A DNA stretch of 64,000 bases from a virus (lineage: Duplodnaviria > Caudoviricetes): positions 1 through 64,000 of the IMG/VR virus record IMGVR_UViG_3300048598_000287; one strand, 5' to 3'. A model generated the notes under the pieces. That model searched no databases. It saw nothing but the letters and a program-made list of their open reading frames with translations, and was not told the origin of the DNA. The first letter of the stretch is position 1, and every line of letters starts with the position of its first letter. This document shows, piece after piece, positions 978 to 58,209 of the stretch. The position numbers and the translations under genes were made by a program.

Positions 978-1031
978 TTTGGCTAACCACAGGGTGCGGC
1001 ATAACCCGCACCCCTTTACGGAGAATCCGCT

Positions 1032-1997: not shown

Positions 1998-2009
1998 CAG
2001 GAGAAAATT

Positions 2010-2594
2010 ATGAAAGAATATATTGTAAAGTTCAAGAATAACTCCGGGAAGTCTCTCGGATACGGCTATCACATCGGTATGTACCGACTGTTCGGAGCTG
2101 AAAATGAAACATATGAAATAAACATCCCTCGGTTCCAGATTTTTGGAAACGGCATCGTACGCTTTTACACGGACGAAACGATTAAAAATGAAAGCGTCCT
2201 TGCATTCCAGCCGACATCTACTGATGTGAATACCGTTGCTTCCGGGTTTAACATTGTGTTCGCTCCTACCCGCAAGGATAAGAGGCTCTCGGGAACCGCA
2301 AAGCCCGTGCAGCCTACTGAAGTAGGCAAAAATTACATAAAGGGAAAACTCGCCGCCATGCTTGCACAAATGGGCATTACTGATGCGGACATAGAGTTAG
2401 AATACGGGCACGCGTTCTCCGAACAGTTCAAAAAAGGATTGGCGGTGCATAATATAATGACCGCCGCCGCTACTGTACGGTTTGCTTCTCCGCATGACAT
2501 TAGCAAAATCCTTACGAATGGCTACGGAAAGTTCAAGTTCAACGGGCTCGGTTATGTGGCTGAAATCTTTCACGACAGCGTGCAAAACCAGTAA
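2010..2594 (+). CDS. cas6: Cas6 crRNA-processing endoribonuclease (Cas6e-like G-loop)
   Basis: C-terminal glycine loop LTNGYGKFKFNGLGY; directly upstream of the array. Confidence 0.75.
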   Translation: MKEYIVKFKNNSGKSLGYGYHIGMYRLFGAENETYEINIPRFQIFGNGIVRFYTDETIKNESVLAFQPTSTDVNTVASGFNIVFAPTRKDKRLSGTAKPVQPTEVGKNYIKGKLAAMLAQMGITDADIELEYGHAFSEQFKKGLAVHNIMTAAATVRFASPHDISKILTNGYGKFKFNGLGYVAEIFHDSVQNQ

Positions 2595-2665
2595 GATATT
2601 TGTAAGCTATTTTATCTAACCCAACATATTGTATGTGTAGTGTATGGAATACCCAATATATTGCT
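2595..2665 (+). promoter_or_regulatory. CRISPR leader (AT-rich)
   Basis: AT-rich non-coding stretch before the first perfect repeat; degenerate repeats are at the opposite end. Confidence 0.55.
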
Positions 2666-3167
2666 GTTTCCCCCATACGCGGGGGAAGTTTACCAGAACG
2701 CAGATGCGGCTCTTTCGCAGTCGATAGTTTCCCCCATACGCGGGGGAAGTTTACCTAAGCCGTTCTCCGTATTAATCGTATAACTTGGTTTCCCCCATAC
2801 GCGGGGGAAGTTTACAAGATATAGTAAGAAAAACCACTGAAGCTATCCGTTTCCCCCATACGCGGGGGAAGTTTACCAGTGGAATTGGGGTCGTTCAGTA
2901 TGTTCTCATGTTTCCCCCATACGCGGGGGAAGTTTACCGGTAGAAGACGTATACAGTTTCCCCCATATGCGTTTCCCCCATACGCGGGGGAAGTTTACCA
3001 TTACAATATAATGGCACCGAAAACGGGCCAAGTTTCCCCCATACGCGGGGGAAGTTTACCTGAGATGGAAAGTGACGAGAATTCCATTTACAGTTTCCCC
3101 CATATGCGGGGGAAGTTTACTAGGGGCGTTTAGGTATTGGTTTCCCCCACCTATGGGGGAAGTTGAA
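2666..3167 (+). CRISPR. CRISPR array, repeat GTTTCCCCCATACGCGGGGGAAGTTTAC (28 bp), seven 33-bp spacers plus a degenerate trailer unit
   Basis: Repeats at 2666, 2727, 2788, 2849, 2910, 2971, 3032 and 3093 (one variant), period 61. Degenerate copy at 3140-3167 after a 19-bp spacer. CCCCC/GGGGG hairpin. Confidence 0.97.
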
Positions 3168-3208
3168 TGTAAAGTTGAATGTAAAGTTGAATGTAAAGGT
3201 GAATGTAA
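3160..3208 (+). repeat. 12-bp tandem repeat AAGTTGAATGTA x4
   Basis: Directly visible at the array trailer. Confidence 0.9.
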
Positions 3209-3270
3209 AAATGTTCCCCACGTATTGGGCACATTTGCTATATTGAAAGCGATCGTGTTTTGCAACCTGT

Positions 3271-3322
3271 TCCATCACCCTGTTCCATGACCGGTTCGAG
3301 AGATGGATAGGCCACCGTATAT
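3271..3322 (+). promoter_or_regulatory. Bipartite motif TCCATCACCC-N30-GCCACCGTATAT upstream of cas3 (also at 6558, 7013, 8689, 12923, 15699, 19809)
   Basis: Conserved boxes with 28-30 nt variable spacing, usually followed by the CAACAAGGAG RBS. Confidence 0.7.
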
Positions 3323-3349
3323 AGATGGGTATCAACAAGGAGTCTGAAT

Positions 3350-5683
3350 ATGGTATATGCAAAGGCGCTTAATAATGAATGCACCTCCATTACACTGAAG
3401 GAGCACAGTGAATCCGTGGCGAAGAAGGCGCGTGAGCTTGCTCTGACCCTTACGGGAGACTATCGCATAGGGAATCTCCTGTATGTTGCGGGCCTTCTGC
3501 ATGACGTAGGGAAGGCGACCAGCCATATGCAGGATTACTTCACGGGCAAAAGCTCCGGCGAACCGTCTCCGTATCATTCCGAAATCGGCTGGATGTGGAT
3601 TAGCACACAGGCGGCTCAAATCAAGCAGTATCTTAAGAATAATGAAGCGGTTCCCGAAGCATTCTGCAAGACCCCTTCCGTATGCGTTGACATACTGGCC
3701 AAGTCCGTGTTCTATCACCATGCGCGACATGTTCAATATGACGATAAGCATAAGGAAATTGACCCGGTATCAGACCTTACGGAGCACTGTTCCGAATACG
3801 TGCAGGAAATGAATTCCTCATATGCAAACGAGGAGTTCCACATGGAGTTTGACAATGACGTTCAGTTTGACGGGAAGGTACCCGAACTTAAGTCATCAGT
3901 GACAACTGGATCGCAGTCATCGGTGGCGGACGGGTTATTGTATCTTGTGCGCACCATCCTTGTCCATGCCGATCACATGGTGAGCGGTAACCTATCCGAT
4001 GGCAAGAGTTTTTCCGCATATCCCGTTCCCAATATGCCCGAGGGATGGGACGCTAAACGGTATGGCACGAGCAAGGAAATCGCTCTCGGCATCACCGGGT
4101 CATCCGGGATAAAGAATCATGTCATCAATGCCCCTGCTGGGTTCGGCAAAACCTCCATCGCGTATCTCACTGCACTTATGAGCAGCAACCGGACGGTCAT
4201 AGCGTGTCCGACCAAGTTCATAGCTGATGGCCTATATGATTCCCTTAATGAGCTAGAGAACCTTTTCGGGACACGTGTCGGGATAGAGCTTGTGTATGGC
4301 GGGAAACGGCAGAAGGCATCCTGTGAGGATTCCATGTGCAAGATAAGCGTGGGTACGATAGACACGTTCGTGGGGACGTTCGTGAAGGGCAAGAACATGG
4401 GGAATGCCATAGAGGGTTCCGACATATGCGCGTATGACATCCTTTCCTCGAACGTGGTGTTTGACGAATATCACGAGCTTCTGGATAACAATGCGCTCTT
4501 CGCGCTGTTCGTGAACATTCTATCCGCGCGCACCGTGTTCGTGAAGGATGCGAAGACGGTTCTGATGAGTGCGACACCCGTTAACTTACGTTCCGTGGCA
4601 CCTGTCCGCGATGGTGAGAACACGCAGTATTATCCGTCAAGAAACGAGGCCTATCCTGCTCAGCACGATAAGGAGTACACTCTATGCATGGTTGATTCCG
4701 TGCCCGAGAATCTTCCGGATAATACGTTCGCAATATTCAACACCGTGAAGGAAGCTCAGAAGCATATGGCAAATGGGAACACAATATGTCATCATGCGAA
4801 ATTCACGAAGGAAGACCGTGCCCGGAACGAAATGAATCTGTTCAGACATCACGGGAAGCATGGATCGGTTCCGGTATCGGTCTCCGCGTCTCCCATAATG
4901 CAGGCTTCAGTAGACGTGTCGGCGGGCACATTGTATGAGAGCACCGCATGGTTCACCAACACCGTGCAGCGGATCGGAAGATGCAACCGGTGGGGACGGG
5001 ATGAGAAAGCGGCGATCAATCTGTATTTCTCAACGGATGCCACGGAGAACATGACACGGTTCAAAGAGAAGTCCGCACTGGCCGATTCATGGCGGAAGTT
5101 CGTTTCGGAAAACGTGCATCCCAATATGACGGTCAACCTTGACTGGATATATAAGGAGCTGTACTTTAAGTTCTGTTCGGAGAACAATGAACAGATTGAT
5201 GCCTACACTACCGAATGCTATAAGGAGGGTAGGCAATCGCTCGCATCGCTTTTCCCAAAGGCGAGCGGTCAGTATAAGGATGAAACGAGCAAGGAGATCA
5301 GCGTTGATGGCTTGCGCGGTGATGCGAAATGTAATTGCGCACTCTATTGCAAAGAAGATGGTAAATGGATAGGTACGAATCATCAAAAAGATCCGAATGA
5401 CATCCCGTTCTCAATCGAGTACGAAAAGGTTACGCGTCTGTTAGATAAGGTGGAAGACATGGACAAGTGGTTGGGCCAGCTGCTCAAAACATATCCCGGA
5501 TCGTTTTCAGGAATAGAGGAATATGTAGGGTATAAGTCGGTTATCGGAAATATTACAAAGAAGAAGTTCGCATCCCTCATTAAGAATTTCGCATCATTCA
5601 GCAAGGACAGTGACTATCCGGTTCCGGTTCCCGAAGGCATGGGAATTTATGACCATCGTATAGGGGCTATGCTAACATTCTAA
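3350..5683 (+). CDS. cas3: Cas3 HD nuclease-SF2 helicase (no Cas2 fusion)
   Basis: YAK..TLKEHS, LHDVGK, HSEIG, YHH and HADH (HD domain); APAGFGKT (Walker A), DEYH, MSAT, HAKF and QRIGRCNRWG. Confidence 0.95.
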   Translation: MVYAKALNNECTSITLKEHSESVAKKARELALTLTGDYRIGNLLYVAGLLHDVGKATSHMQDYFTGKSSGEPSPYHSEIGWMWISTQAAQIKQYLKNNEAVPEAFCKTPSVCVDILAKSVFYHHARHVQYDDKHKEIDPVSDLTEHCSEYVQEMNSSYANEEFHMEFDNDVQFDGKVPELKSSVTTGSQSSVADGLLYLVRTILVHADHMVSGNLSDGKSFSAYPVPNMPEGWDAKRYGTSKEIALGITGSSGIKNHVINAPAGFGKTSIAYLTALMSSNRTVIACPTKFIADGLYDSLNELENLFGTRVGIELVYGGKRQKASCEDSMCKISVGTIDTFVGTFVKGKNMGNAIEGSDICAYDILSSNVVFDEYHELLDNNALFALFVNILSARTVFVKDAKTVLMSATPVNLRSVAPVRDGENTQYYPSRNEAYPAQHDKEYTLCMVDSVPENLPDNTFAIFNTVKEAQKHMANGNTICHHAKFTKEDRARNEMNLFRHHGKHGSVPVSVSASPIMQASVDVSAGTLYESTAWFTNTVQRIGRCNRWGRDEKAAINLYFSTDATENMTRFKEKSALADSWRKFVSENVHPNMTVNLDWIYKELYFKFCSENNEQIDAYTTECYKEGRQSLASLFPKASGQYKDETSKEISVDGLRGDAKCNCALYCKEDGKWIGTNHQKDPNDIPFSIEYEKVTRLLDKVEDMDKWLGQLLKTYPGSFSGIEEYVGYKSVIGNITKKKFASLIKNFASFSKDSDYPVPVPEGMGIYDHRIGAMLTF

Positions 5684-7091: not shown

Positions 7092-7568
7092 ATGAAAAAT
7101 GTAAACCATTTTACCGTGACGGATGTGCAAATTGATCTCAATGGTAATGGTATTTGTAAGGCTACCGCCCACGTCGTTCTGAACAATCAGCTTGTTCTCA
7201 CTGGACTCCGCATTCTGGACGGTGTTAATGGGCTTTTTGTTGGCTATCCGAAAGGTCATGACAACAATGGCGCGGACGACCGCACATTATATTATCCTGC
7301 GGATACGCAGCTGCGCGATCATATTGAGGAATGTGTCATTGCAAAGTATAAGGAAGCAATTGTTTCCCGCCATGTCCGCACAAACTGGGACGTCTTCTGC
7401 GAAAGGTACGGAACGGATAAAAATGAAGATTTATTAAAGATGGCTATGTTTCAGGGAATTGGCTGTCGTTGCTGTCCTGCTAAATTATTTTGCAAAAAAA
7501 TAAAAGCACCCACATGCCACGATTCATTTGTCCGCTGGGCTACATCGGAAGCAAAGGATGCGAAATGA
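7092..7568 (+). CDS. spoVG: SpoVG-family nucleic-acid-binding protein with Cys-rich C-terminal extension
   Basis: VTDVQI..KATAHVVLNNQLVLTGLRILDGVNGLFVGYP..YYP...LRDHIEECVIAKY. Confidence 0.8.
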   Translation: MKNVNHFTVTDVQIDLNGNGICKATAHVVLNNQLVLTGLRILDGVNGLFVGYPKGHDNNGADDRTLYYPADTQLRDHIEECVIAKYKEAIVSRHVRTNWDVFCERYGTDKNEDLLKMAMFQGIGCRCCPAKLFCKKIKAPTCHDSFVRWATSEAKDAK

Positions 7569-16660: not shown

Positions 16661-16874
16661 TCCACTCCCCATAATGCCCCATATCCTGATGGAGGAATCA
16701 GAATAGGAAAGGATATTCTCTTAGATATCAAACATAGGTTCGAATGTGTTAGGCTGTTTAATGAACTCTTGGAAAAGACTCTAGAGAATCTGTGACATCG
16801 AATGCAAATATGAAATATCCATTGCCAATTGGTAATTAATAATATATATTATGGATATTATACGGAGGTCCAAC

Positions 16875-18032
16875 ATGCCTGAAATTTCTATTAAAGAAGC
16901 AAGAGAGATATATCGTCTAAATCATGAGATGAAATCCCTGATGCTCACTAAATTTCCCAAGGAAATGCTTGAAGCAGATGATTCATCCACCTCTGATAAA
17001 TCGAGTCACATAAATGGAATGATGATTCACTCAAAGGATGAAAATGGATCCGAATGTTGGCAGGATTTCGATAACAATAAAAACCTAGTTCATGAGAAGG
17101 ATTCCGACGGATCCGAACATTGGTACAACTATGATGCCAATGGAATGATGATTCACGCAAAGGATGAAAATGGATTCGACGTGTGGTATGAATATAATGC
17201 GAATGGTAACATTATTCATAAAAAGGATTCCGAGGGGGATGAATATTGGTATGATGCCATAGGAACCCTTATGCATAAGAAGATTTCCGATGGAGACGAA
17301 AGATGGTATGATTCTAATGGGAAAACCTTTCATATTAAGTGGCCCAGCGGAGCTGAATGGTGGTTCGATGCCAATGGAAATAAGATCCATGAGAAGCATT
17401 CCGATGGTCACGAATATTGGTACGATACCAATGGGACTCTGATTCATGAGAAGTCGTCTGATGGGAAATTACTTTATCGGAGGTATTTTGACGGCTCATA
17501 CGTCAGGTGGGAATATGCTACCAATGGGGAATGCAGTCATTATAAGGATTCCTATGGTGTTGAACGCTGGCACGACTACGATGGCAAAGGAAACTTGATC
17601 CATCTAAAAGGGGGCGACGGATATGAAGAATGGTATGACTATGATTCTAAAGGAACCCTGCTTCATATGAAGGATTCCTATGGGCATGATTGTTGGTATG
17701 ATTCTAATGGTAAACATATTCATGAGAAGTCTTCCGACGGATACGAATCGTGGTACGACGATAAGGGCACACTTAGTAGTACGAAAGATGCCTTTGGCCG
17801 AGAATGTAAGTACGATGCCAATGGAAAACTGAGTTATAAGAAGAATTCACATGGAACCGAATGGTGGTTCGATGCCAATGGCCGCCTGATTCATGCAAAA
17901 GATCCGGATGGGTATGAAATGTGGTACGAGTACGATGCCAATGGGAATAAGATTCATTATAAGGATTCCGATGGCGATGAACGCTGGTATGAATACGACG
18001 ATAAGGGGCAAACGTCAGTAAACAAAATTTAA
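16875..18032 (+). CDS. MAELT-type N-terminal module fused to YD-like repeats
   Basis: MPEISIKEAREIY..EMKSLMLTKF followed by repeats. Confidence 0.85.
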   Translation: MPEISIKEAREIYRLNHEMKSLMLTKFPKEMLEADDSSTSDKSSHINGMMIHSKDENGSECWQDFDNNKNLVHEKDSDGSEHWYNYDANGMMIHAKDENGFDVWYEYNANGNIIHKKDSEGDEYWYDAIGTLMHKKISDGDERWYDSNGKTFHIKWPSGAEWWFDANGNKIHEKHSDGHEYWYDTNGTLIHEKSSDGKLLYRRYFDGSYVRWEYATNGECSHYKDSYGVERWHDYDGKGNLIHLKGGDGYEEWYDYDSKGTLLHMKDSYGHDCWYDSNGKHIHEKSSDGYESWYDDKGTLSSTKDAFGRECKYDANGKLSYKKNSHGTEWWFDANGRLIHAKDPDGYEMWYEYDANGNKIHYKDSDGDERWYEYDDKGQTSVNKI

Positions 18033-18092: not shown

Positions 18093-19019
18093 ATGCAAGG
18101 AGTTAACAATATGTATCAGGCAGACATGTTAAATAAATGTAACTGGACGTTCGACTATGATATCAATGGTAACGTTATTCATGCAAAGACCGTGACTGGA
18201 TATGAGGAATGGTATGAATACGATAGAAATGGGAAACTAAAGTATATGAAGAATTCCCGCGGCGCCGAACGATGGTACGATATCAATGGGAATAATTTTT
18301 ACACCCAGTTTTCCGATAGATCCGAAACGTGGTATGATGCCGATGGAAAGGTGATCCATGACAAGCTTTCCACTGGAATAGAATATTGGTATGAATATAA
18401 TTCATTGGGGAACATGATTCATAAGAAGTGTTCCGACGGATCCGAAGAATGGTATGATGCCGATGGGAAAAAGATTCATGCAAAGCATTCCGACGGTTTC
18501 GAATATTGGTATGATGCCGATGGGGAACTGATCCATTATAAGGATTCCGACGGAGATGAATATTGGTATGATGCCATAGGAACCCTTATGCATAAGAAGA
18601 TTTCCGATGGAGAGGAATGGTGGTACGAATACGATGCCAATGGTAAACTGATTCATTATAAGAAATCCGACGGCGATGAATGGTGGTATGAATATGATGC
18701 CTATGGAAATAGTATTTCCGGTGGATCAAAAGAATGGTACAATTCCATTAGTAGCGGTAATCATAATAAGTCTTCCGACGGATCCGAAACCTGGTATGAG
18801 TATGATGCCAATGGAAACATGGTTCATGCGAAAGATTCCGACGGATATGAACAATGGTGGGATTACGATTCCCATGGAAACATAACGCTGATTCGTAAAA
18901 ACTCTTCCGATGGATCCGAATGGCTGTATGATGCCAATAGGCAGCTGGTTAATATCAAGGTAATGCCTTGTATAGCACCACAGTATGTTTCTATTAACCT
19001 TAAGGTAAGCCGTAATTAA
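18093..19019 (+). CDS. YD-like repeat protein
   Basis: Repeats; contains the 30/31-nt match to the spacer at 51584-51614. Confidence 0.85.
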   Translation: MQGVNNMYQADMLNKCNWTFDYDINGNVIHAKTVTGYEEWYEYDRNGKLKYMKNSRGAERWYDINGNNFYTQFSDRSETWYDADGKVIHDKLSTGIEYWYEYNSLGNMIHKKCSDGSEEWYDADGKKIHAKHSDGFEYWYDADGELIHYKDSDGDEYWYDAIGTLMHKKISDGEEWWYEYDANGKLIHYKKSDGDEWWYEYDAYGNSISGGSKEWYNSISSGNHNKSSDGSETWYEYDANGNMVHAKDSDGYEQWWDYDSHGNITLIRKNSSDGSEWLYDANRQLVNIKVMPCIAPQYVSINLKVSRN

Positions 19020-45508: not shown

Positions 45509-46831
45509 GTGAACTACCCTCACCCTAAAGGGAGTGGGCTTCTTTTCGTTTCAACGGATCAGCTATGGAAGTTCCCTGCAAGCAGGGGACGGACAGGAGA
45601 TTCTCGACGGAGGGGCGTTCCGCCCGCTCGGCTCTGTGTGACGAGCCGATCAATAGAATGTTCTTTGCGGCATGAATATCCCTGTCCTCAGTCATGCCGC
45701 AGTCACAGGCGAAGATGCGCTTGCTGGGCGGCATATTGAGGAGGGAGCCGCATGCCGTGCACAGCCGGGTCGTGGGTTCCCATTTTGAGAGTTTAAATGA
45801 TGCAAAGCCTTCTTTCTGGATGAGTTTCTGTTTGATTCTTCCGAGGCATGAATGCTGGACGGCGCGGCCATAGCCGCGGCGTCTGCATCTTTGCCAGGAA
45901 GCGATCTGTTCATCCTGGAAATAGACAAAATCATAATTGGCATAGATCCAGTGAATGATCTTGTTGGCCTTGTCATCCCGCACATTGGATATGTGCTGAT
46001 ATTCACGCCGCACGAGCCGGAGAAGATGATTCCGTCGCTTGGATTCCTTATCGTGCTTCAGTGCCAGATGGCGCTGGAGCCGTGTAAGTTTCTCGGTTTC
46101 TTGCTCGGATACATCGAACTTCGTCCCGTCGGACACGGTCACCGTGTCCTTTATGCCCATGTCAATCCCGCAGGATCTGCCCGTCTTGGGCAAATCAGCG
46201 ATTTTAGCAGTCAGGCAAAGCTTTATATGGAAGCCGTCAGGCTTCCTCAATAGGCAGCTGTCATGCAGCTGATATGATTCAAATTTATTGAGATGTTCCA
46301 GACCGTGAACTTTCAGATTAGGAAATCCCGGGATCGTCATCATTGATCCGCTCTTTATCGTCATTCCCTGATGCCGGATCGGAAGGCTGCTCACCTCGCG
46401 GCGGAATCTCAGCTTCCCTACTTTTCCGCCTTTAAGTTTCTTCTTGTTAAGATTCTTAACGTCTTCCTTAAGTTTCTTTATCAGGTTCTGATGGATTCCG
46501 GTGTTGAGCGTGATCTCACGCTCAACCCGATTGTGTTCACGATCAAAACACAATACCTTGCGGTGCTCATTGTATTTATAACCGAAGATATCACCTGTCG
46601 ATATGGCGTCGTTTATCGACCACTTGGCCTCGACGAAGGCATGAGAAAGACGACGCAAGACGGACTTATCCGTCTTGCGCGCATTTACCTTCAAATCTAT
46701 CTGCCTTATCGCTTCCATCATTTATATAATTTATATCCTTGACTTTAATATACATTTTTATTATACTGTTATCTATGGCGGAATTCATCTCCCCGGACTA
46801 AATTCCGGGAGTTTTCTTCCGCAAATCTCCG
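45509..46831 (-). mobile_element. Non-autonomous IS200/IS605-family (IS1341-like) element
   Basis: tnpB only. Subterminal hairpins at both ends. Right end ...GTAGTTCAC; TTTAT immediately 5' of the left end. Confidence 0.75.
45525..46721 (-). CDS. tnpB: TnpB RNA-guided endonuclease
   Basis: GIDMGIKD (RuvC-I), YFQDE (RuvC-II), CTACG/CDCG zinc finger, DRDIHAAKNI (RuvC-III). Confidence 0.92.
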   Translation of the reverse strand: MMEAIRQIDLKVNARKTDKSVLRRLSHAFVEAKWSINDAISTGDIFGYKYNEHRKVLCFDREHNRVEREITLNTGIHQNLIKKLKEDVKNLNKKKLKGGKVGKLRFRREVSSLPIRHQGMTIKSGSMMTIPGFPNLKVHGLEHLNKFESYQLHDSCLLRKPDGFHIKLCLTAKIADLPKTGRSCGIDMGIKDTVTVSDGTKFDVSEQETEKLTRLQRHLALKHDKESKRRNHLLRLVRREYQHISNVRDDKANKIIHWIYANYDFVYFQDEQIASWQRCRRRGYGRAVQHSCLGRIKQKLIQKEGFASFKLSKWEPTTRLCTACGSLLNMPPSKRIFACDCGMTEDRDIHAAKNILLIGSSHRAERAERPSVENLLSVPCLQGTSIADPLKRKEAHSL

Positions 46832-47057
46832 ATAAACAAATCTTAACCTGCGTCTCAGCCTTGATTTCCGCGTCGCGGCGCTGGAGGTCGGAGTAACATC
46901 ACACAATCTGAACTGGATATTCACCAAGATGGAAAGGCGTTAATAGAATACAACAGGTGTAACATCAGACAAACCGAATCTAATCTTCATCCATTCTTTT
47001 GTACGCATCGCACCGCATGCAGGTGTAACATCAGACAAACCGAATCTAATCTTCATC
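46832..47057 (-). repeat. CRISPR-like mini-array A: 36-nt repeats at 47022, 46956, 46890 plus a degenerate end; three 30-nt spacers
   Basis: Period exactly 66; unique spacers. Confidence 0.85.
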
Positions 47058-47428
47058 TGATTCTTCATAAATCGTTGAATATCTTCATATTGCAATGAAT
47101 ACTTATCATAAAAAATCTCCCATACACGAGAACAACTTACCAAGAAATGCTTATTTTTTCCGGTTAACTGAATGTCAAACATCCATTCATCATCTGAATT
47201 GCGAAGATCTATACGATGGGTGGGTAGTTTGCTTTCATCACCATATTCATCCAGGAACACCGTATTTGTGCATTGTCCAAGTAGTTCCAGGAACGTCTTA
47301 TCAAATTCTTCCTGAGTAACCTCAGGTTTCTCTAATTCTGCTTTAGAGAACTTGGTGAGCATCAGGGATTTCATCTCATCCGATTCATTATAGATCTTTC
47401 TTGCTTCTTCAATTGTTAATTCTGCCAT
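46940..47428 (-). CDS. MAELT-family array-associated protein
   Basis: Paralog family; reads through two repeats (KIRFGLSDVTP twice). Confidence 0.85.
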   Translation of the reverse strand: MAELTIEEARKIYNESDEMKSLMLTKFSKAELEKPEVTQEEFDKTFLELLGQCTNTVFLDEYGDESKLPTHRIDLRNSDDEWMFDIQLTGKNKHFLVSCSRVWEIFYDKYSLQYEDIQRFMKNQMKIRFGLSDVTPACGAMRTKEWMKIRFGLSDVTPVVFY

Positions 47429-47451
47429 GGTAGGCCTCCATATAATATTTA

Positions 47452-47601
47452 ATAATCCAATCCGAATCTAATCGTCACCCTAGAAAACGCTCATGATAAA
47501 TCAATACCTGGTGTAACATCATTCAATCCGAACCGGATATTCACTACATGCTCCGTAGTCGGAACGATGTAATATCATCCAATCCGAACACGGTGTTCAC
47601 C
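47452..47601 (-). repeat. Mini-array B: repeats at 47566 and 47510, partial ending 47479; spacers of 20 and 30 nt
   Basis: Visible repeats. Confidence 0.8.
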
Positions 47602-47972
47602 TGATTCTTCATAAGTCGTTGAATCGCATTATCTTGCAATGAATACTTATCCTTGAAAATCTTCCATACCCTAAAATAACTTACCCAAAAATGCTTATTT
47701 TTTCCTGTGAAGAGGATGTCAAACATCCATTCATCATTTGGTTTTCTAAGTTCTCTGCGGTTAGTGGGAAGTTTGCTTTCATAACTATTTTCATCCAAGA
47801 ACACCGTCTTGGTGCATTGTCCAAGTAGTTCCAGGAACGTCTTGTCGAATTCTTCCTGTGTAACCGCATGCTTCTCAAGGTCTTCCTTAGTGAACTTAGT
47901 GAGCATCAGGGATTTCATCTCATCCGATGATGCGTAGATCTTTCTAGCTTCTTCGATTGTCAATCCGGGCAT
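47544..47972 (-). CDS. MAELT-family array-associated protein
   Basis: Paralog. Confidence 0.85.
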   Translation of the reverse strand: MPGLTIEEARKIYASSDEMKSLMLTKFTKEDLEKHAVTQEEFDKTFLELLGQCTKTVFLDENSYESKLPTNRRELRKPNDEWMFDILFTGKNKHFWVSYFRVWKIFKDKYSLQDNAIQRLMKNQVNTVFGLDDITSFRLRSM

Positions 47973-48112
47973 ATTTTATCTCCTTAATATGATGCAATTA
48001 AATATAGATATTTAATTGGTCATTGTCAACTACAAATGATACCAGAATTCGGATCAATTGGAATAATATGTATATCGGGTTTAATGGCCATTAAATTATT
48101 TATAGTCTCTTT

Positions 48113-48215
48113 GCTGTAACATCATCCAGCCCGAATCTAATCTTCACCATGTATCCGACAAATGTCATAATCCGTCTTGATTGTAACATCATCCAATCCG
48201 AACTGGATATTAACC
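48113..48215 (-). repeat. Mini-array C: repeats at 48180 and 48113; 31-nt spacer
   Basis: Visible repeats. Confidence 0.8.
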
Positions 48216-48586
48216 TGATTTTTCATAAGTCGTTGAATATCAATATCGTACATCGAATAGGTATCCACGAAAATCTTCCATACACGGTAATGACTTACCC
48301 AGAACCGCTTATTTTTCCCGGTGAACTTAATATCAATCATCCATTCGTTATTAGAATTTCTTAGTTCTATCGTGTTTGTGGGAAGATTGCTTTTTTCACC
48401 ATATTCATTCAGGAACGCAATCTTGGTGCATTGACCCAGTAATTTCAGGAACGTCTCGTCGAATTCTTCCTGAGTAACCGCATGCTTCTCAAGGTCTTCC
48501 TTAGTGAACTTGGTGAGCATCAGAGATTTCATCTCATCCGATGATGCATAGATCTTTCTTGCTTCTTCAATAGTCAATTCGGGCAT
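48137..48586 (-). CDS. MAELT-family array-associated protein
   Basis: Paralog; start MPELT. Confidence 0.85.
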   Translation of the reverse strand: MPELTIEEARKIYASSDEMKSLMLTKFTKEDLEKHAVTQEEFDETFLKLLGQCTKIAFLNEYGEKSNLPTNTIELRNSNNEWMIDIKFTGKNKRFWVSHYRVWKIFVDTYSMYDIDIQRLMKNQVNIQFGLDDVTIKTDYDICRIHGED

Positions 48587-48626
48587 ATTACATCTCCGTT
48601 GATATCTTAAATATATTAGCCAAGGA

Positions 48627-49043
48627 TTAAACGGGTATTTTTCCATAACGGTATTTAATGAATTTCAAATCATTTTCATCAATATAGCCATCCTGGATGA
48701 GGTTGTTACCGATTGCCTGCTCATCATACCACTTTTCATATGTATCGGGCATATCCCTATTTTTTATATATTCGTCTAAAGTCTCATTATAGCCTTCATA
48801 TTTTTTCCATTCATCGTTGAAAACGAATCCTTTTGCATTTAATTCATGTTCTGAAAGAACGAATTCTTCACACAGGTCAGGTTTTATTATGCAAACCCAT
48901 TGCCACCTAGGTTCAGCATCGCAAGTATAGTTCAGCTGAGAAAGCAAATGCATAGAAGGGAAAATATATTTCGTTCCGGAAAACCGATATACGGGAGCAT
49001 CAAAATATGTGTCTAAAAGTTTACTTTTACATTGTGCTTTCAT
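48627..49043 (-). CDS. Hypothetical protein
   Basis: ORF. Confidence 0.6.
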   Translation of the reverse strand: MKAQCKSKLLDTYFDAPVYRFSGTKYIFPSMHLLSQLNYTCDAEPRWQWVCIIKPDLCEEFVLSEHELNAKGFVFNDEWKKYEGYNETLDEYIKNRDMPDTYEKWYDEQAIGNNLIQDGYIDENDLKFIKYRYGKIPV

Positions 49044-49059
49044 AAATAGATACCTTCTG

Positions 49060-49144
49060 TTTCAATGTTTCCATAGCAGCATGCTAGGGTTTTAGTTAGC
49101 TTCATCTAGATAGTTCTCGCGTATTCAATCGTCAACTCGGTCAT
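49060..49144 (-). pseudogene. Decayed MAELT-family 5' fragment
   Basis: MTELTIEYARTI-stop after the family RBS GGAGGCCTACC and a terminal-repeat remnant. Confidence 0.6.
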
Positions 49145-49883
49145 GGTAGGCCTCCGTATAATATTTAATTATCCAATCAAATCCTGTTATTCATCCTGGT
49201 ATTTCTTAGATGCATCACATGTTATTGTCGGATAGTTAGGAAACTCATAGAACTTCAGTGGTTTTATGTTTGGTGTGTCAAATGGGCCTCGCAATGCCCA
49301 GTGAATTCCGTCATTGTCGTTCGCCTGTTTCTTCAATTCTTCCAGCGAAAACAAATATTCAATGAGGGCCACCTTTTCCGCATTGCTTAGGGAATCTGAT
49401 GTCATGATTAGGGTCTTCAGTTTTTCTGAACTATTCATATTATCATTCATTTAATTATCCTTTCCTGGAATATATTTCCAAGTTCAATCTGGTGATTGGT
49501 AATTCAATCTCTATAGGTAAACTATATTTTCTGCGATACCGTTACGATAGGAATTCACGGTACTGTCCGTTTCTGGGTGTTCTAATGTGGGAAATGACGT
49601 ATGTCAATATCAACCGATATAGATTTCGCAGATTCGTTAGTTACAATCAATGCATATTGTTCTCTACCGTTAATTATTGTAGATGTGTATTTTGTCACAC
49701 GCATCGACTTAGCAATGGACATGGTGTCAATATCTATTTCAGCATCGCCGGCTATTTTACGGGAATCAATGATATATGCAGAAAATTTTGAGCCCGATAA
49801 TACATTCACCGATGTCCATCCCGTGATAGAAATAGGCAAATTTACGGCGATCAATTTATTAGGACCTAGGATAGCCATTTAGC

Positions 49884-50306
49884 TCAGCCTCCGCCTTGTA
49901 CACAGTTCGCATACGGTTCGTTAAGTGGATGAATGGATAGCGTACCCCAGGCGTTTGGTTCACGACAAGTACGGGATTTAATCTGTGCCATAGCTTCTTC
50001 GGTAGTATGCGCTATGGCAAATGCCACGCCACGTGTATAAGCTGAGCAAAAATCTGTCCAGACAAATAACCGTAAGTTTTCGTTCATAATAATCTTAGGT
50101 ACTTCATCTGGAATAGTTGGCGCTGAGATAGTCGATCTAGACGATAATCCTTTGAAACCATACCATTTGTCGCGTTTCTGAACGGTTTCCGAATATATAT
50201 CAAGACATCCCTTTAGATATTCTGCCAGAACAAAATCAGGCGTATCCGATTCGTTTTCCTTACTGTACTTATTGATCAGCAATTCAAGCTCATTTTCAAA
50301 TTCCAT
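49884..50306 (-). CDS. Two-module hypothetical protein (C-terminal module shared with 37725-37925)
   Basis: LRLFVW..FC..YT.G.AFAIA in both. Confidence 0.65.
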   Translation of the reverse strand: MEFENELELLINKYSKENESDTPDFVLAEYLKGCLDIYSETVQKRDKWYGFKGLSSRSTISAPTIPDEVPKIIMNENLRLFVWTDFCSAYTRGVAFAIAHTTEEAMAQIKSRTCREPNAWGTLSIHPLNEPYANCVQGGG

Positions 50307-50333
50307 TATCGTCCTCTATGTAAAATATCAATT

Positions 50334-50532
50334 GATGTGACATCATCCAATCATAACCGGATATTCACTACATGCTCCGTAGTCGGAACGATGTAATATC
50401 ATCCAATCCGAACACGGTGTTCACCCACTGATTGATACATATCCTGATGGAGGAATGTGTTCACCCACTGATTGATACATATCCTGATGGAGGAATGATG
50501 TAATATCATCCAATCCGAACACGGTATTCACC
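50334..50532 (-). repeat. Mini-array E: repeats at 50497, 50390, 50334; a duplicated 31-nt spacer and a 20-nt spacer
   Basis: Visible repeats. Confidence 0.85.
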
Positions 50533-50904
50533 TGATTCTTCATAAGTCGTTGAATCGCATCATCTTGTAATGAATATGTATTCGCAAAAATCTTCCATAT
50601 CCTAAAATAACTTACCCAGAAATGTTTATTTTTTTCCTGTGAAGAGGATGTCAAACATCCATTCATCATTTGGGTTTCTAAGTTCTATACGATTGGTGGG
50701 AAGCTTGCTTTTATAACCATGTTCATTCAGAAACACCGTATTTGTGCATTGTCCAAGTAGTTCCAGGAACGTCTTATCAAATTCTTCCTGAGTAACCTCA
50801 TGTTTCTCAAGTTCACTTTTAGAGAACTTGGTGAGCATCAGGGATTTCATCTCATCCGATGATGTGTAAATCTTTCTTGCTTCTTCAATAGAAATTTCTG
50901 CCAT
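50421..50904 (-). pseudogene. MAELT-family gene with +1 frameshift in an A7 run (50629-50635)
   Basis: The paralog at 47544 has A6; the two ORF halves reconstitute a full protein. Confidence 0.8.
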
Positions 50905-50926
50905 AGTAGACATCCTTATAGTTAAT

Positions 50927-51096
50927 CACCAATACGAACATTGCAATCAGCCTAGAAAGCGAGCATGATAACTACCTGATGTAACATCAGTCAATCCGAA
51001 CAGAGGGTTCACCTCCCGTTCCATTATGCACGTCCGTGAAACGGGTCCTACAGGCCCCACATTGTAACATCATCCAATCCGAATCTAATCTTCACC
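50927..51096 (-). repeat. Mini-array F: repeats at 51061 and 50978, partial ending 50951; spacers of 47 and 26 nt
   Basis: Visible repeats. Confidence 0.75.
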
Positions 51097-51467
51097 TGAT
51101 TAGTCATAAGTCGTTGAATATCAATATAGTTCAATGAATAGGTATCCGCTAAAATATTCCATACCCGGAAATTATTTAACCAGAAATGCTTATGTTTTCC
51201 TGTGAAGCAAATGTCAAACATCCAATCGTTATTTGAATTTTTGAGTACTATGCGGTTTGTGGGAAGCTTGCTTTCAACCCAATCTTCATCCAAGAACACC
51301 GTCTTGGTGCATTGTCCAAGTAGTTCCAGGAACGTCTTATCAAATTCTTCCTGAGTAACCTCATGCTTCTCTAATTCTGCTTTAGAGAACTTGGTGAGCA
51401 TCAGGGATTTCATCTCATCCGATTCATTATAGATCTTTCTTGCTTCTTCAATTGTTAATTCTGCCAT
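51048..51467 (-). CDS. MAELT-family array-associated protein
   Basis: Paralog. Confidence 0.85.
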   Translation of the reverse strand: MAELTIEEARKIYNESDEMKSLMLTKFSKAELEKHEVTQEEFDKTFLELLGQCTKTVFLDEDWVESKLPTNRIVLKNSNNDWMFDICFTGKHKHFWLNNFRVWNILADTYSLNYIDIQRLMTNQVKIRFGLDDVTMWGL

Positions 51468-51497
51468 AGTAGGCCTCCTTATATAAGTTAATTAGAT

Positions 51498-51718
51498 AAT
51501 CCGAACTGGATATTCATCTGATTCCAAAGGATCTGAACGGCGGCACGGATGTAATATCATCCAATCCGAACTGGTTATTCATCTATGATATCAATGGGAA
51601 CGTTATTCATGCAAGGTGTAACATCATTCAATCCGAATCTAATCTTCACCCAAGTTTCTGAGCAACCCGTATGATTTTCCTTGGTGTAACATCATTCAAT
51701 CCGAATCTAATCTTCACC
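51498..51718 (-). repeat. Mini-array G: repeats at 51683, 51615, 51548, partial ending 51518; spacers of 32, 31 and 29 nt
   Basis: Visible repeats. Confidence 0.88.
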
Positions 51719-52089
51719 TGATTCTTCATAAGTTTAGTAATATCATTATCTTGCAATGAATACTTATCCTTGAAAATCTTCCATACCCTTTCAGAACTTA
51801 CCCAGAAATGTGGGTAGTTTCCTATGAAGAGGATGTCAAACATCCATTCATCATTTGGGTTTCTAAGTTCTATACGATTGGTGGGAAGATTGCTTTTATA
51901 ACCATGTTCATTCAGGAACACCGTCTTGGTACATTGCCCAAGAAATTCCAGGAAGATCTTATCGAATTCTTCTTGAGTAACCTCATGCGGTTCAAGTTCA
52001 TCTTTCGTGAACTTAGTGAGCATCAGGAATTTCATCTCATCCGATGATGCGTAGATCTTTCTTGCTTCTTCAATTGTCAGGTCTGGCAT
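51646..52089 (-). CDS. MAELT-family array-associated protein
   Basis: Paralog; start MPDLT. Confidence 0.85.
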   Translation of the reverse strand: MPDLTIEEARKIYASSDEMKFLMLTKFTKDELEPHEVTQEEFDKIFLEFLGQCTKTVFLNEHGYKSNLPTNRIELRNPNDEWMFDILFIGNYPHFWVSSERVWKIFKDKYSLQDNDITKLMKNQVKIRFGLNDVTPRKIIRVAQKLG

Positions 52090-52156
52090 TGTATATCTCC
52101 TTAATGTGATGTAATTAAATATACATTTTTTACACCTCATTGGCAAGTGAGTTTAA

Positions 52157-52417
52157 TCATTTCATATCAAGATGACTAGATATGTATGAATGTACACTTT
52201 TCCAAAGCTGGTCCACATCCGAATCGCATCGTACGATTACGTCAGCAACTTTCTGCTTATTGATGTGCACGGACACCTGACCAGTTGAATCCGATATCGT
52301 AATCGAATCTTCACCTGATCCGTAAAAAATAACATGGACGGCGTCGCCTACTGTCACATGCATGATACGTACGGCATTGATGAAGATTTGATCATCAGTT
52401 ATCACACTTATTTTCAT
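52157..52417 (-). CDS. Hypothetical protein
   Basis: RBS GGAGG. Confidence 0.6.
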   Translation of the reverse strand: MKISVITDDQIFINAVRIMHVTVGDAVHVIFYGSGEDSITISDSTGQVSVHINKQKVADVIVRCDSDVDQLWKSVHSYISSHLDMK

Positions 52418-52487: not shown

Positions 52488-53081
52488 TTAATACCACCAT
52501 TCATGTCCATCTGACCTTTTATTATGAATAATGCTCCCATCGGCATCGTACCAATCTTCATGCCCATAGGAATCCTTATAATGAATGCATTTTCCATCGG
52601 AATCGTAATCCCACCAGTGTTCATATCCGTCAGTAAGTTTCTTATGAATGCATTTTCCATCGGAATCATAGTAATACCATATTTCTGATCCGTCGGTATC
52701 CTTATAGCGAATCGGCTTCCCGCTCTCATCAAACCAATGTTCGGATCCGTTGGAATTTTTCGTATAGATCAGTTTTCCATTGGCATCGTACCACCATTCG
52801 AATCCATCTGAGGCCGTATAATGAATAAGATGCCGATTTCCATAGGAATCATATTCATACCATTTTTCAGATCCGTTGGGATACTTCGTATGAATCATGT
52901 TCCCATCGGCATCGTACCACAATTCATTACCCATTAAATCCTTCAGATGACTCGATTTATCAGAGTCCGATGAATCATCGGCTTCAAGGATTTTCTTGGA
53001 GAATTTGGTGAGCATCAGGGATTTCAGCGCATCAGAGTTGTGATAGATATTTCTTGCTTCTTTAATAGTCAATTCCGCCAT
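52488..53081 (-). CDS. MAELT N-terminal module fused to YD-like repeats
   Basis: MAELTIKEARNIY..KSLMLTKF followed by repeats. Confidence 0.85.
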   Translation of the reverse strand: MAELTIKEARNIYHNSDALKSLMLTKFSKKILEADDSSDSDKSSHLKDLMGNELWYDADGNMIHTKYPNGSEKWYEYDSYGNRHLIHYTASDGFEWWYDANGKLIYTKNSNGSEHWFDESGKPIRYKDTDGSEIWYYYDSDGKCIHKKLTDGYEHWWDYDSDGKCIHYKDSYGHEDWYDADGSIIHNKRSDGHEWWY

Positions 53082-55008: not shown

Positions 55009-55443
55009 ATGGCTGAATTGACAATTGAAGAAGCCCGAAAGATCTACGCAACAACGGATGATATGAAATCCCTGATGCTTACTAAGTTCTCTAAAAGTGA
55101 ACTTGAGAAACATGAGGTTACACAGGAAGAATTCGATAAGACCTTCCTGAGATTACTTGGGCAATGCACCAAGACTGTGTTCCTGGATGAAGCGGGTGAT
55201 GAAAGCCCGCTTCCCACTAACCGTATCGAACTCAGAAATTCAGATAACGAATGGATGTTTGACATCCAGTTCACTGGTAAAAATAAGCATTTCTGGGTAC
55301 ATTATTCTCGGGTATGGTGGATTTTCAAGGATAATGATTCATTGCAATATGAAGATATTGTACGACTTATGAAGAATCAGATGAACTCACGGTTCGGATT
55401 GGCTGATGTTAAACCCCTAATTAAGGAAATCATATTTTTTTAA
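55009..55443 (+). CDS. MAELT-family array-associated protein
   Basis: Paralog. Confidence 0.85.
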   Translation: MAELTIEEARKIYATTDDMKSLMLTKFSKSELEKHEVTQEEFDKTFLRLLGQCTKTVFLDEAGDESPLPTNRIELRNSDNEWMFDIQFTGKNKHFWVHYSRVWWIFKDNDSLQYEDIVRLMKNQMNSRFGLADVKPLIKEIIFF

Positions 55444-55510
55444 CACCCGGTTCGGATTGGGTGATGTTCAATCCATAACGGGATGAATAACATGGTTGGA
55501 TTGGATTATT
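55380..55510 (+). repeat. Mini-array H (degenerate): repeats at 55380, ~55438, partial at 55482
   Basis: Visible repeats. Confidence 0.7.
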
Positions 55511-55532
55511 AACTAATATAAGGAGGCCTGAC

Positions 55533-55961
55533 ATGGCTGAATTGACAATTGAAGAAGCTAGGAAGATCTACGCATCATCGGATGAGATGAAATCGCTGAT
55601 GCTCACCAAGTTCTCTAAAGCCGAATTAGAGAAACACAACCTTACACAGGAAGAATTTGATAAGATCTTCCTGGAATTGCTTGGCCAATGTATTAAGACC
55701 GTGTTCCTGGATAAACACGGTCATGAAAATAAGATTCCTAATAACCGGGTAAGATTAATAGATGCCACTGATAATTGGCTGTTTGATATTCAATTCACAG
55801 GAAAAGATAAGCATTTCTGGGTAAGTAATTCCCGGATATGGAATTGTTTAGCGGATACATATTCATTGAACTATAGTGATATCCAACGACTTATGAAAAA
55901 TCAGATGAACACCCGGTTCGGAATGGGTGATGTTACACCCTTCATTTTTTCACATACGTAG
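55533..55961 (+). CDS. MAELT-family array-associated protein
   Basis: Paralog. Confidence 0.85.
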   Translation: MAELTIEEARKIYASSDEMKSLMLTKFSKAELEKHNLTQEEFDKIFLELLGQCIKTVFLDKHGHENKIPNNRVRLIDATDNWLFDIQFTGKDKHFWVSNSRIWNCLADTYSLNYSDIQRLMKNQMNTRFGMGDVTPFIFSHT

Positions 55962-56031
55962 CGGAACACGTTGAACACTGGGTTAGGATTAAACCATAAC
56001 GGGATGAATAACATGGTTGGATTGGATTATT
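55904..56031 (+). repeat. Mini-array I: repeat at 55904, 30-nt spacer, partial repeats
   Basis: Visible repeats. Confidence 0.7.
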
Positions 56032-56053
56032 AAATAATATAAGGAGGCCTACT

Positions 56054-56482
56054 ATGGCTGAATTGACAATTGAAGAAGCCAGGAAGATCTATGCAACAAC
56101 GGATGATATGAAATCCCTGATGCTCACCAAATTCACTAAGGAAGCCCTTGAGAAGCATGAAGTTACTCAGGAAGAATTCGATAAGATCTTCCTGGAATTG
56201 CTTGGCCAATGCTCCAAGACGGCGTTTCTGAATGAAGTGGGTGATGAAAGCCAGCTTCCCAATAACCGTATAGAACTCAGAAATTCAGATAACGAATGGA
56301 TGTTTGACATCCAGTTCACTGGTAAAAATAAGCATTTCTGGGTACATTATTCTCGTGTATGGAAGATTTTCATGAATACTTATTCGTTGGAAGATGTTGA
56401 TATTAAACTACTTATGAAGAATAAGATACATATTAGGTTCGGATTGGATGATGTTACCCCTTGTAGTTATTGGAAATGTTGA
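56054..56482 (+). CDS. MAELT-family array-associated protein
   Basis: Paralog. Confidence 0.85.
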   Translation: MAELTIEEARKIYATTDDMKSLMLTKFTKEALEKHEVTQEEFDKIFLELLGQCSKTAFLNEVGDESQLPNNRIELRNSDNEWMFDIQFTGKNKHFWVHYSRVWKIFMNTYSLEDVDIKLLMKNKIHIRFGLDDVTPCSYWKC

Positions 56483-56592
56483 TCTGCGAAGATACATATT
56501 AGGTTCGGATTGGATGATGTTACCCCAGAGACGGCTATGCTGACGCGGCAGTAGAAGATACATATTAGGTTCGGATTGGATGATGTTACACC
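56425..56592 (+). repeat. Mini-array J: GATACATATTAGGTTCGGATTGGATGATGTTACMCC at 56425, 56491, 56557; two 30-nt spacers
   Basis: Period exactly 66. Confidence 0.9.
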
Positions 56593-56655: not shown

Positions 56656-58209
56656 ATGGCTGAATTGACGATTGAAGAAGCAAGAAAGATCTACGCATCA
56701 TCGGATGATATGAAATCCCTGATGCTCACCAAATTCACTAAGGAAGACCTTGAAGAGGATTATACATCGTCCTCTTATGATAACCAGAATCACGGGCATG
56801 ATTCCCAGGGTAATGATTTTTGGTGCGATATCAATGGGAACGTAATTCATAAGAAAGCTCCAAATGGATTCGAAGCATGGTTCAATACAGATGGAAAAGT
56901 GATTCATAAGAAGCATTCTGACGGGTTTGAGGAATGGGTTGACTATGATTCTTATGGAAGAACTAATCATGTGAACGATTCCGATGGGTCAGAACGCTGG
57001 TACGAATACAATGCTAATGGGACAATATCACACGCTAAGTTTTCTGATGGGGAGGAATGGTGGTGCAATATCAATGGAAATAAGAGTCATTCCAAGTGGT
57101 CCGACGGATCCGAATCGTGGTACGATGCCAATGGAAATGACATTCATGGAAAAAATTCCGATGGATCGGAATGCTGGCATGATTTTGATAGCAATAAAAA
57201 ACTGATTCATAAGAAGTATTCCAATGGATTGGAAGAGTGGTATGATGCCACGGGGAATATGATCCGGTTGAAAGATTCCCTCGGATATGAAATGCGGTAT
57301 GAATATGATGCCAATGGCCACCTCATGCGCGAGAAGGATTCCTTAGGATGGGAAAAGTGGTGTGAATATGATGCCAACGGGCATCTGATTCACTCAAAGG
57401 ATTCAAATGGATTCGAACGGATGCATGAATATGCTACCGATGGGCACCGCATTCATGAGAAGGATTCGGACGGGCGCGAAAAATGGTATGATGCCAATGG
57501 AAAAATCATTCATTCTAAGTCTTCCGACGGAGTAGAAAAGTGCGAATCATGGTTCGATACCAATGGAAAACTGATTCACTTGAAATGTTCCGACGGTTTC
57601 GAATATTGGTATGATGCCGATGGGGAACTGATCCATTATAAGGATTCCGACGGAGATGAATATTGGTATGATGCCATAGGAACCCTTATGCATAAGAAGA
57701 TTTCCGATGGATCAGAAGAATGGTATGAATATAATGCTAATGGAAGGCTAATTTATGCAAATAATTCCGATGGATTTGAATCTTGGTATGAATATGGAGC
57801 CAATGGGCGAATGATTCATAATAAGACTTACGATGGATCAGAAGAATGGTATGCTACCGATGGGCACCGCATTCATGAGAAGGATTCGGACGGTTTCGAA
57901 TATTGGTATGATGCCAATGGGAATATCATTCATGAAAAGGATTCCGATGGATCAGAAGGTTGGCGGGATTTTGATAACAATAAAAAATTGATTCATAAGA
58001 AGTATTCCGACGGATTAGAACACTGGTATGATGCCAATGGGAACGTAATTCATAAGAAAAATCCAAATGAATTAGAATATTGGTGGAAATATGATGCCGA
58101 TGGGAAATTGAGTAATGAAATATGTTCTGATGGGTCAACCCGATGGTATTCTTATGATGCCCATGGGAATATGATTCATATGAAGATTTCCAATAGAACA
58201 TCTATTTGA
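56656..58209 (+). CDS. MAELT N-terminal module fused to a long YD-like repeat region
   Basis: MAELTIEEARKIY followed by ~22 repeats. Confidence 0.88.
   Translation: MAELTIEEARKIYASSDDMKSLMLTKFTKEDLEEDYTSSSYDNQNHGHDSQGNDFWCDINGNVIHKKAPNGFEAWFNTDGKVIHKKHSDGFEEWVDYDSYGRTNHVNDSDGSERWYEYNANGTISHAKFSDGEEWWCNINGNKSHSKWSDGSESWYDANGNDIHGKNSDGSECWHDFDSNKKLIHKKYSNGLEEWYDATGNMIRLKDSLGYEMRYEYDANGHLMREKDSLGWEKWCEYDANGHLIHSKDSNGFERMHEYATDGHRIHEKDSDGREKWYDANGKIIHSKSSDGVEKCESWFDTNGKLIHLKCSDGFEYWYDADGELIHYKDSDGDEYWYDAIGTLMHKKISDGSEEWYEYNANGRLIYANNSDGFESWYEYGANGRMIHNKTYDGSEEWYATDGHRIHEKDSDGFEYWYDANGNIIHEKDSDGSEGWRDFDNNKKLIHKKYSDGLEHWYDANGNVIHKKNPNELEYWWKYDADGKLSNEICSDGSTRWYSYDAHGNMIHMKISNRTSI

Follow-up and report, generated by a model that had tools for sequence, protein, structure and literature searches.

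The window analysed here was the whole stretch of 64,000 nucleotides at positions 1 to 64,000 of the IMG/VR virus record IMGVR_UViG_3300048598_000287, which was a single virus contig of 277,197 bp with an estimated completeness of 66%. The segment 51519-51614 consisted of two spacers and the intervening repeat of a four-repeat mini-array (array F), which started within the 12 codons that close the conserved part of a small phage gene (gene F). The gene and the array together occupied 51498-52089 on the minus strand, and their parts are listed in Table 1. The 12 codons constituted the first repeat of the array, and the variable tail of the protein was encoded by the first spacer. The truncated last repeat ran straight into the ribosome-binding region of gene E (51048-51467), the paralog that follows. 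A sigma-70-like promoter was located upstream of gene F at 52146-52118, and no terminator-like sites were found on the minus strand in 46700-52300.

TABLE 1. Features of array F, its sister arrays, the mapped spacers and the canonical CRISPR-Cas locus. Positions are those of the window unless marked as genome positions; L followed by a number denotes a contig of another strain or relative.
Feature	Position	Strand	Description
Gene F, MAELT family	51646-52089	-	147 aa; ORF list, paralog alignment and sense-strand read-out
Repeat 1 of array F	51683-51718	-	36 nt, within the coding sequence of gene F; repeat search and profile scan
Spacer F1	51651-51682	-	32 nt; in this strain only, recent gain
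Repeat 2 of array F	51615-51650	-	Identical to repeat 1
Spacer F2	51584-51614	-	31 nt; copy of a YD/RHS-repeat gene, antisense to the source gene in array orientation
Source or target of spacer F2	18156-18186	+	Within YD/RHS-repeat gene 18093-19019
Repeat 3 of array F	51548-51583	-	Diverged, 10 differences from repeats 1 and 2
Spacer F3	51519-51547	-	29 nt; YD-like coding sequence in antisense
Truncated last repeat of array F	51498-51518	-	First 21 nt of the repeat; profile scan and sense-strand read-out
Sister genes with arrays A, B and C	46890-48215	-	Repeats at 46890-47057, 47455-47601 and 48113-48215
Sister arrays D and E	50334-51096	-	D at 50334-50532, E at 50978-51096
Sister genes G, H and I with arrays	55009-56592	+	Repeats at 55380-55468, 55904-55990 and 56425-56592
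Spacer B2 of array B	47480-47509	-	29/30 match to genome 228365-228394 in DnaB-like helicase gene 227567-229054, beyond the window; antisense
First spacer of array J in L001-L004			29/30 match to 1816-aa minus-strand gene 189848-195298 (genome); sense
First spacer of an array in L036, L037, L042 and L054			31/31 match to 641-aa plus-strand gene 238325-240250 (genome); sense
Three YD-like spacers			79-90% matches to YD genes; antisense
Shared 5' module sites	16851-16973, 52785-53081, 56656-56781; genome 85083-85181		Common to small-protein and YD-repeat genes
Weak Cas7fv-like gene	3-977		Canonical locus
Two genes without family assignment	1032-1997, 2010-2594		Canonical locus
Canonical array	2666-3120		Eight 28-nt hairpin repeats, seven 33-nt spacers
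Cas3	3350-5683		PADLOC Cas3fv, 5e-42

Gene F belonged to a set of ten paralogs of approximately 135 aa with arrays, nine of which were in the window and one at 82.7-83.3 kb. In every paralog, the first repeat encoded the last 12 conserved residues, and the reading frame continued through the repeat into spacer 1 as a variable tail; one to three further repeats then followed. The repeats were 36 nt in length and varied between and within the arrays of this genome, and the spacers were mostly 30 nt. The lengths of the 42 unique spacers were 30 nt for 22 of them, 31 nt for seven, 29 nt for three and 32 nt for two, and 36 spacers fell within 28-33 nt. The off-length spacers had 20, 22, 47 and, in a duplicated case, 71 nt. 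This 71-nt insert in array D (50426-50496, minus strand) consisted of two copies of a 31-nt spacer on either side of a 9-nt repeat fragment; the initial 19 nt of the insert matched 16680-16698, upstream of a YD gene, and its place was taken by a 30-nt YD-derived spacer in L037. Paralog D itself (50421-50913, minus strand) was split by a single extra base, which was either a homopolymer-run assembly error or a real frameshift, and the gene was intact with 160 aa in four other strains. The predicted RNA folds of the repeats were no better than those of shuffled sequences and were inconsistent between repeat variants. Synonymous-site conservation gave no clear peak in scan intervals that reached part-way into the repeat and left its last codons outside.

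Two further observations concerned the surroundings of the arrays. Several YD-repeat proteins had the N-terminal 33-43 residues in common with the small proteins, and the start region upstream was likewise shared; therefore, the small-protein and YD-repeat families exchange a common 5' module. A TnpB gene of the IS605 family (45525-46721, minus strand) was located directly downstream of array A, and an IS607-like element with resolvase and TnpB was situated between two repeat copies of an array in L007 (8001-10372). The arrays seem to be favoured landing sites for TnpB-type elements. A link of TnpB to the arrays was considered as a candidate and was not supported, as the positions of the elements differed between strains.

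The small protein had 253 close homologs in sewage and other metagenomes, and its family comprised 142 cluster representatives, some with alignment identities near 20%. The C-terminal motif encoded by the repeat was conserved at the protein level across distant homologs, and tails of variable length followed it. In the distant relatives L046, L047 and L051, the gene end was again a 36-nt repeat followed by 30-nt spacers, at the same codon positions but with an unrelated nucleotide sequence; the proteins of L046 and L047 were 31-40% identical in tblastn. Hence, the array architecture was conserved in relatives although the nucleotide sequence of the repeat differed. The arrays were not universal in the family, since one paralog of L051 had no array. 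The fusion of a truncated last repeat to the start region of the next gene was found in this lineage and in one distant relative. L051 was the one related contig returned by a gene-end pattern search of IMG/VR; the search of IMG/VR with the small protein gave nothing, the repeat core was without a match there, and no DNA similarity to this phage was found in 50,697 phage records.

The predicted structure of the small protein was confident (pLDDT 94.8, alignment of 103 sequences). In this model, the residues encoded by the repeat formed the end of the last helix and led into the final strand, which included tail residues. The best VIA-align scores were weak (Z of at most 4.6) and pointed to MCM N-terminal and winged-helix domains, and no nuclease-like match was obtained in the structure comparisons. 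No significant match was found in Pfam, PHROGs or PADLOC. Moreover, Foldseek gave no PDB match for the fold, and the Atlas search returned only viral hypothetical proteins.

The origin of spacer F2 was clear. It matched 18156-18186 at 30 of 31 positions with both sequences on the plus strand, a match for which none was expected in shuffles, and the similarity ended exactly at both repeat borders. The plus-strand translation of 51584-51613 was a YD unit. The YD repeat units of the window numbered well over 100, and the second-best of them for this spacer reached only 23/24; hence, spacer F2 was a specific copy rather than a case of family resemblance. The spacer was unchanged in 10 other strains. 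The plus-strand gene 18093-19019 matched the Pfam profile RHS_repeat (PF05593) at E 1e-16 in a profile search, and gene 56656-58209 matched the same profile at E 1.5e-25. The original prediction had traced this spacer to the YD gene, and the tracing was borne out. No other record with the exact YD protein was found. Small genes of the YD/RHS type were massively expanded in this phage at 8173-28110, 38474-43944, 52491-53081 and 56656-58206, amounting to approximately 19 kb with repeat periods of 57 and 63 nt.

Spacer F3 was a more distant case. The plus-strand translation of 51520-51546 gave the same nine residues (DSKGSERRH) in which a YD motif had been read before, and its top nucleotide match in the genome was 23/29 with a YD gene at 12626, above a shuffled background of at most 73%, so that the reading as a YD motif held as well. 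F3 was an old spacer. It was terminal in the more distant relatives L007, L017, L053 and L054 with zero to one change, where it stood beside an unrelated spacer. By inspection, F2 and F3 would abut within approximately 2 nt in a consensus YD unit, and their capture in one tiling event was considered; it was rejected because F3 had no near-exact source and its neighbour in the relatives was unrelated.

According to the genome-wide comparison, 7 of 39 unique spacers of normal length from this phage and its relatives matched this genome above shuffled controls, and four of the matches were near-exact (Table 1). The earlier view that the spacers are captured phage gene fragments was thus supported. 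A decayed copy of spacer B2 was present in array E, and no source was found in the genome for spacer F1. Several other spacers had been proposed as coding sequence on the strand opposite the array; none of them had a detectable source in the genome, and the proposal gained no support. YD-like coding sequence made up 7% of the genome, and 4 of the 39 spacers were YD-derived; this was no clear enrichment, since repeated families are easier to detect. No flanking motif (PAM) was shared among the four exact protospacers, a sample of only four, and no microhomology was seen at the spacer borders.

The spacers were richer in GC than random 30-mers of the phage (47.6% vs. 40.8%, p 7e-5), and 8 of 39 had a GC content of at least 55%. 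Such GC-rich spacers (55-69%, against 41% for the phage) were observed in L056, L036, L017, L059, L007 and L005 and at 56527-56556 in the window. Their composition suggests that they were captured from a second DNA source, which may be the host or other foreign DNA. Comparison of the GC-rich spacers with plasmids and phages gave chance-level matches only, and the two newest spacers had no match in IMG/VR. Other spacers matched closely related viruses: a spacer of L036 agreed with this genome at 31/31 and one of L001 at 29/30. The former was perfect, whereas the self-matching spacers of this genome itself each had one mismatch. It is plausible from these matches that the spacers target competing related phages. 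Helicase variants with the spacer's version of the mismatched codon were sought as a sign of escape and none was found, as all six cluster members covering the site carried the version of this genome.

The orientation of the spacers was evaluated relative to the target genes. Five of the seven mapped spacers were antisense (four YD-derived, one from the helicase gene) and two were sense, and this distribution showed no significant bias. The original prediction had proposed a strand bias pointing to RNA targeting, with random orientation of the protospacers as the result that would speak against it. The bias was not borne out by these counts. The orientation approached randomness at five of seven, a number too small to exclude a weak bias. 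Uniform complementarity to transcripts, the hallmark of RNA-targeting CRISPR systems of types III and VI, was not observed. Furthermore, the four near-exact pairs of spacer and source (genome 18156, 191148, 228365 and 238682) were all direct repeats on the chromosome, whichever strand the array was on. This shared chromosomal polarity may hint at strand-preserving copying (n = 4). Copying in the same orientation would alone make the minus-strand arrays antisense to the YD genes, which are mostly on the plus strand (4/4, still weak). It is plausible from the arrangement of the locus that array F is co-transcribed with gene F, and hence that F2 and F3 would pair in antisense with plus-strand YD mRNAs. 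By inspection, a spacer in L005 (9923-9952) resembled the 5' part of a tRNA (the D-arm region) in the tRNA sense; its best genome match was 20/30, which was within the background.

The turnover of spacers was explored with contigs from many sewage samples that had near-identical copies of the array region. Spacer F1 and one repeat were present only in this genome; all 10 of the other strain contigs with array F (L034-L042, L063) had the order repeat-F2-repeat-F3. The flank of array F (1182 nt) had zero to three differences from L063, L037, L036 and L042, with zero for L063, and 67 differences from L034, L035 and L041, in which F1 was also absent. Spacer F1 was therefore a recent gain rather than the remnant of repeated loss, because the closest relatives and the outgroups all lacked it. 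Array I likewise had an extra gene-proximal spacer in this genome. Arrays H, D, J and A had other first spacers in other strains, each located between two identical repeats. In one array type that was absent from this genome, five different first spacers preceded the same distal spacers, and four of the five preceded the same two. Hence, spacers were gained in a polarised manner next to the gene with duplication of the first repeat while the distal spacers were kept, which is the dynamics of a CRISPR array. The arrays of L007 and L017 shared the proximal spacer and differed in the distal ones, indicating that recombination also occurs.

Genes for adaptation were searched for in the 277-kb record, which is approximately 66% complete. 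No match to Cas1, Cas2, Cas4, reverse transcriptase, Y1 transposase or tyrosine integrase was found in it, and the cas1 and cas2 profiles (PF01867, PF09827) and the reverse transcriptase profile RVT_1 likewise had no match. The 20-nt conserved core of the gene-linked repeat gave single non-array chance matches, one genome each, across 185,579 bacterial and archaeal species representatives. Separately, a canonical CRISPR-Cas locus resembling a type I-F variant was observed at 1-5683 of the window. The contig started inside this locus, and no cas1 was present on the record. The 28-nt repeat of the canonical array was unrelated to the gene-linked 36-nt repeats, and none of its spacers matched the phage itself.

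An autonomous DNA-capture array system whose product recognises sister phages was considered as the explanation of these results, and its merits and difficulties appear to us evenly balanced. In this mechanism, an integrase-type reaction at the DNA level would insert fragments of approximately 30 bp at the junction of the gene body and the first repeat and would duplicate the repeat. The array would be transcribed together with its gene, and its product would be a sequence-specific recogniser. Its most likely targets would be sister phages that infect the same cell, and the small protein would be the partner that binds the repeat. The antisense orientation of F2 and F3 to YD mRNA would then be a chance outcome of the captured strand rather than a sign of RNA targeting. 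Autonomous capture is favoured because gene and repeat evolve together, an observation that speaks against a repeat that simply imitates one of the host. Recognition of sister phages is backed by the strain spacer that is perfect against this genome, given that the self-matching spacers of this genome carry mismatches. A more specific form of the mechanism is put forward tentatively as a possibility that falls a little short of probable: a phage adaptive array independent of Cas1, in which the last 12 codons of a winged-helix-like protein would also serve as the repeat, 30-bp DNA would be captured beside the gene by its protein or by a partner, and the array would direct recognition to sister phages or to genes of the phage itself. 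Such an array would be a second, independently evolved repeat-spacer memory. Several results count against autonomous capture. No integrase candidate was present among the families searched in the incomplete record, no effector was recognised, and the fold matches of the small protein were weak and without nuclease likeness. The four exact protospacers had no flanking motif, and the repeat RNA had no consistent fold. Moreover, interference would be risky with spacers that differ from genes of the carrier itself at a single position. The translation of the first spacer as a protein tail means that a protein-level role is also possible.

Host-dependent viral mini-CRISPR arrays were weighed as an alternative, in which the repeats would mimic a host CRISPR repeat, host Cas1-Cas2 would insert the spacers, and a host effector would exclude related phages. 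The combination of a 36-nt repeat and a 30-nt spacer is a common CRISPR geometry, the spacers match sister-phage DNA, and the record was found to be without adaptation genes, all of which agree with this alternative. Virus-borne mini-arrays that lack cas genes and target related viruses are also known (Medvedeva et al., 2019, PMC6858448; review PMC11656645). The arrays of this phage share with them the number of spacers (one to three), the absence of adjacent cas genes, the matches to related viruses and the differences from strain to strain. However, the known mini-arrays have a leader, and their repeats are identical to host CRISPR repeats (PMC11656645); this mimicry defines them as a type (PMC6858448, PMC11656645), whereas the repeats here differed between and within arrays and had many variants per genome. 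The repeat here was a gene end, that is, coding sequence, and it diverged with its gene across distant phages with the 36/30 layout kept; the repeat core did not occur in array form in any of the 185,579 species representatives. Dependence on a host system is therefore judged unlikely.

Three other readings were given little weight. If the arrays produced antisense RNAs or guides for an RNA-targeting effector against YD and other phage mRNAs, the antisense orientation of all four YD-derived spacers and the helicase spacer would be accounted for, and array F is probably co-transcribed with its gene, as judged from the layout of the locus. However, two of the four near-exact protospacers were sense and the tRNA-like spacer was in the tRNA sense; the step to RNA targeting is unsupported because such sense-oriented spacers exist. 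The proportion of five in seven was no different from chance, YD genes were not clearly enriched, and no RNA-targeting effector was identified in the record, so that this reading appears improbable. A device acting at the protein level, in which spacer 1 encodes a variable C-terminal tail, the downstream units are silent tail cassettes, and turnover diversifies the tail, would fit the frame that is open through repeat 1 into spacer 1 in every paralog, the concentration of strain differences at spacer 1 and the variable tails after the conserved motif in all distant homologs. The model also predicted that the repeat-encoded residues are structured and that the last strand includes tail residues. 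The tails were nevertheless arbitrary in this genome, with approximately 3 to 38 residues, because the spacers came from unrelated genes in either orientation; the frame was kept only by 30-nt spacers, and with 31-32 nt translation ended early, where the next repeat starts or close to it. We consider such a device very unlikely. Non-functional scars, that is, filler DNA acquired through repair or through template switching at the end of a tandem gene family where the DNA is fragile or prone to recombination, would agree with the 5' and 3' modules shared by the tandem paralogs, with the insertion of TnpB elements beside or inside arrays and with the co-orientation of all four near-exact spacers with their sources on the chromosome, as simple copying might give. 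Against scars stand the tight insert length (mode 30 nt), the exact borders, the precise duplication of the repeat, the lack of border microhomology and the recurrence of the same geometry in distant phages, and there is little likelihood that the arrays arose in this way.

The autonomous capture arrays proposed here were further compared with known systems. They resembled CRISPR arrays in their 36-nt direct repeats, in their unique spacers of approximately 30 nt with exact borders that were copied from other DNA, in the one-ended gain between two identical repeats, in the shared far-end spacers and in the degenerate terminal repeat. Unlike in CRISPR arrays, the 'leader' and first repeat of the phage arrays were coding rather than non-coding DNA, at the conserved 3' end of the genes of a protein family, the repeat diverged with the gene and varied within the array, and no Cas1/Cas2 was found in the record. 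Many spacers of the phage arrays also derived from the genome that carried them, four protospacers showed no common flanking motif, and the cas-linked repeat of the same genome was unrelated. The guide of TnpB follows its omega RNA, which extends over the 3' end of the tnpB gene. The phage arrays were similar to these TnpB/IscB guide RNAs in that an element overlapping the 3' end of a partner gene was followed by a variable, target-derived segment, and TnpB was common in these phages; they differed in that the phage protein had approximately 135 aa without a RuvC-like fold and in that the arrays had multiple units with spacers of approximately 30 nt that turned over. In diversity-generating retroelements, a reverse transcriptase and a template repeat accompany a target gene whose 3' end carries the variable repeat. 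In the phage arrays, a repeat at the 3' end of a gene likewise recurred just downstream and the C-terminus varied, but no reverse transcriptase was found, and the repeats flanked unrelated captured inserts and were not mutagenised copies of one another.

To our knowledge, CRISPR-Cas is the only system that records captured DNA in repeat-spacer arrays, and these are written by Cas1-Cas2. The regularity and turnover of CRISPR arrays were tied here to a small phage protein family whose coding end was the repeat, across distantly related phages. Should the phage encode the machinery that writes and reads the arrays, they would represent a new mode of sequence memory and, for engineering, a candidate of very small size. 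If the arrays depend on the host, phages would be able to disguise a CRISPR repeat as coding sequence. In either case, the arrays are a direct record of conflict among co-circulating sewage phage strains. The phage also encoded a SpoVG homolog at 7092-7568 of the window (Pfam, E 1.6e-13).
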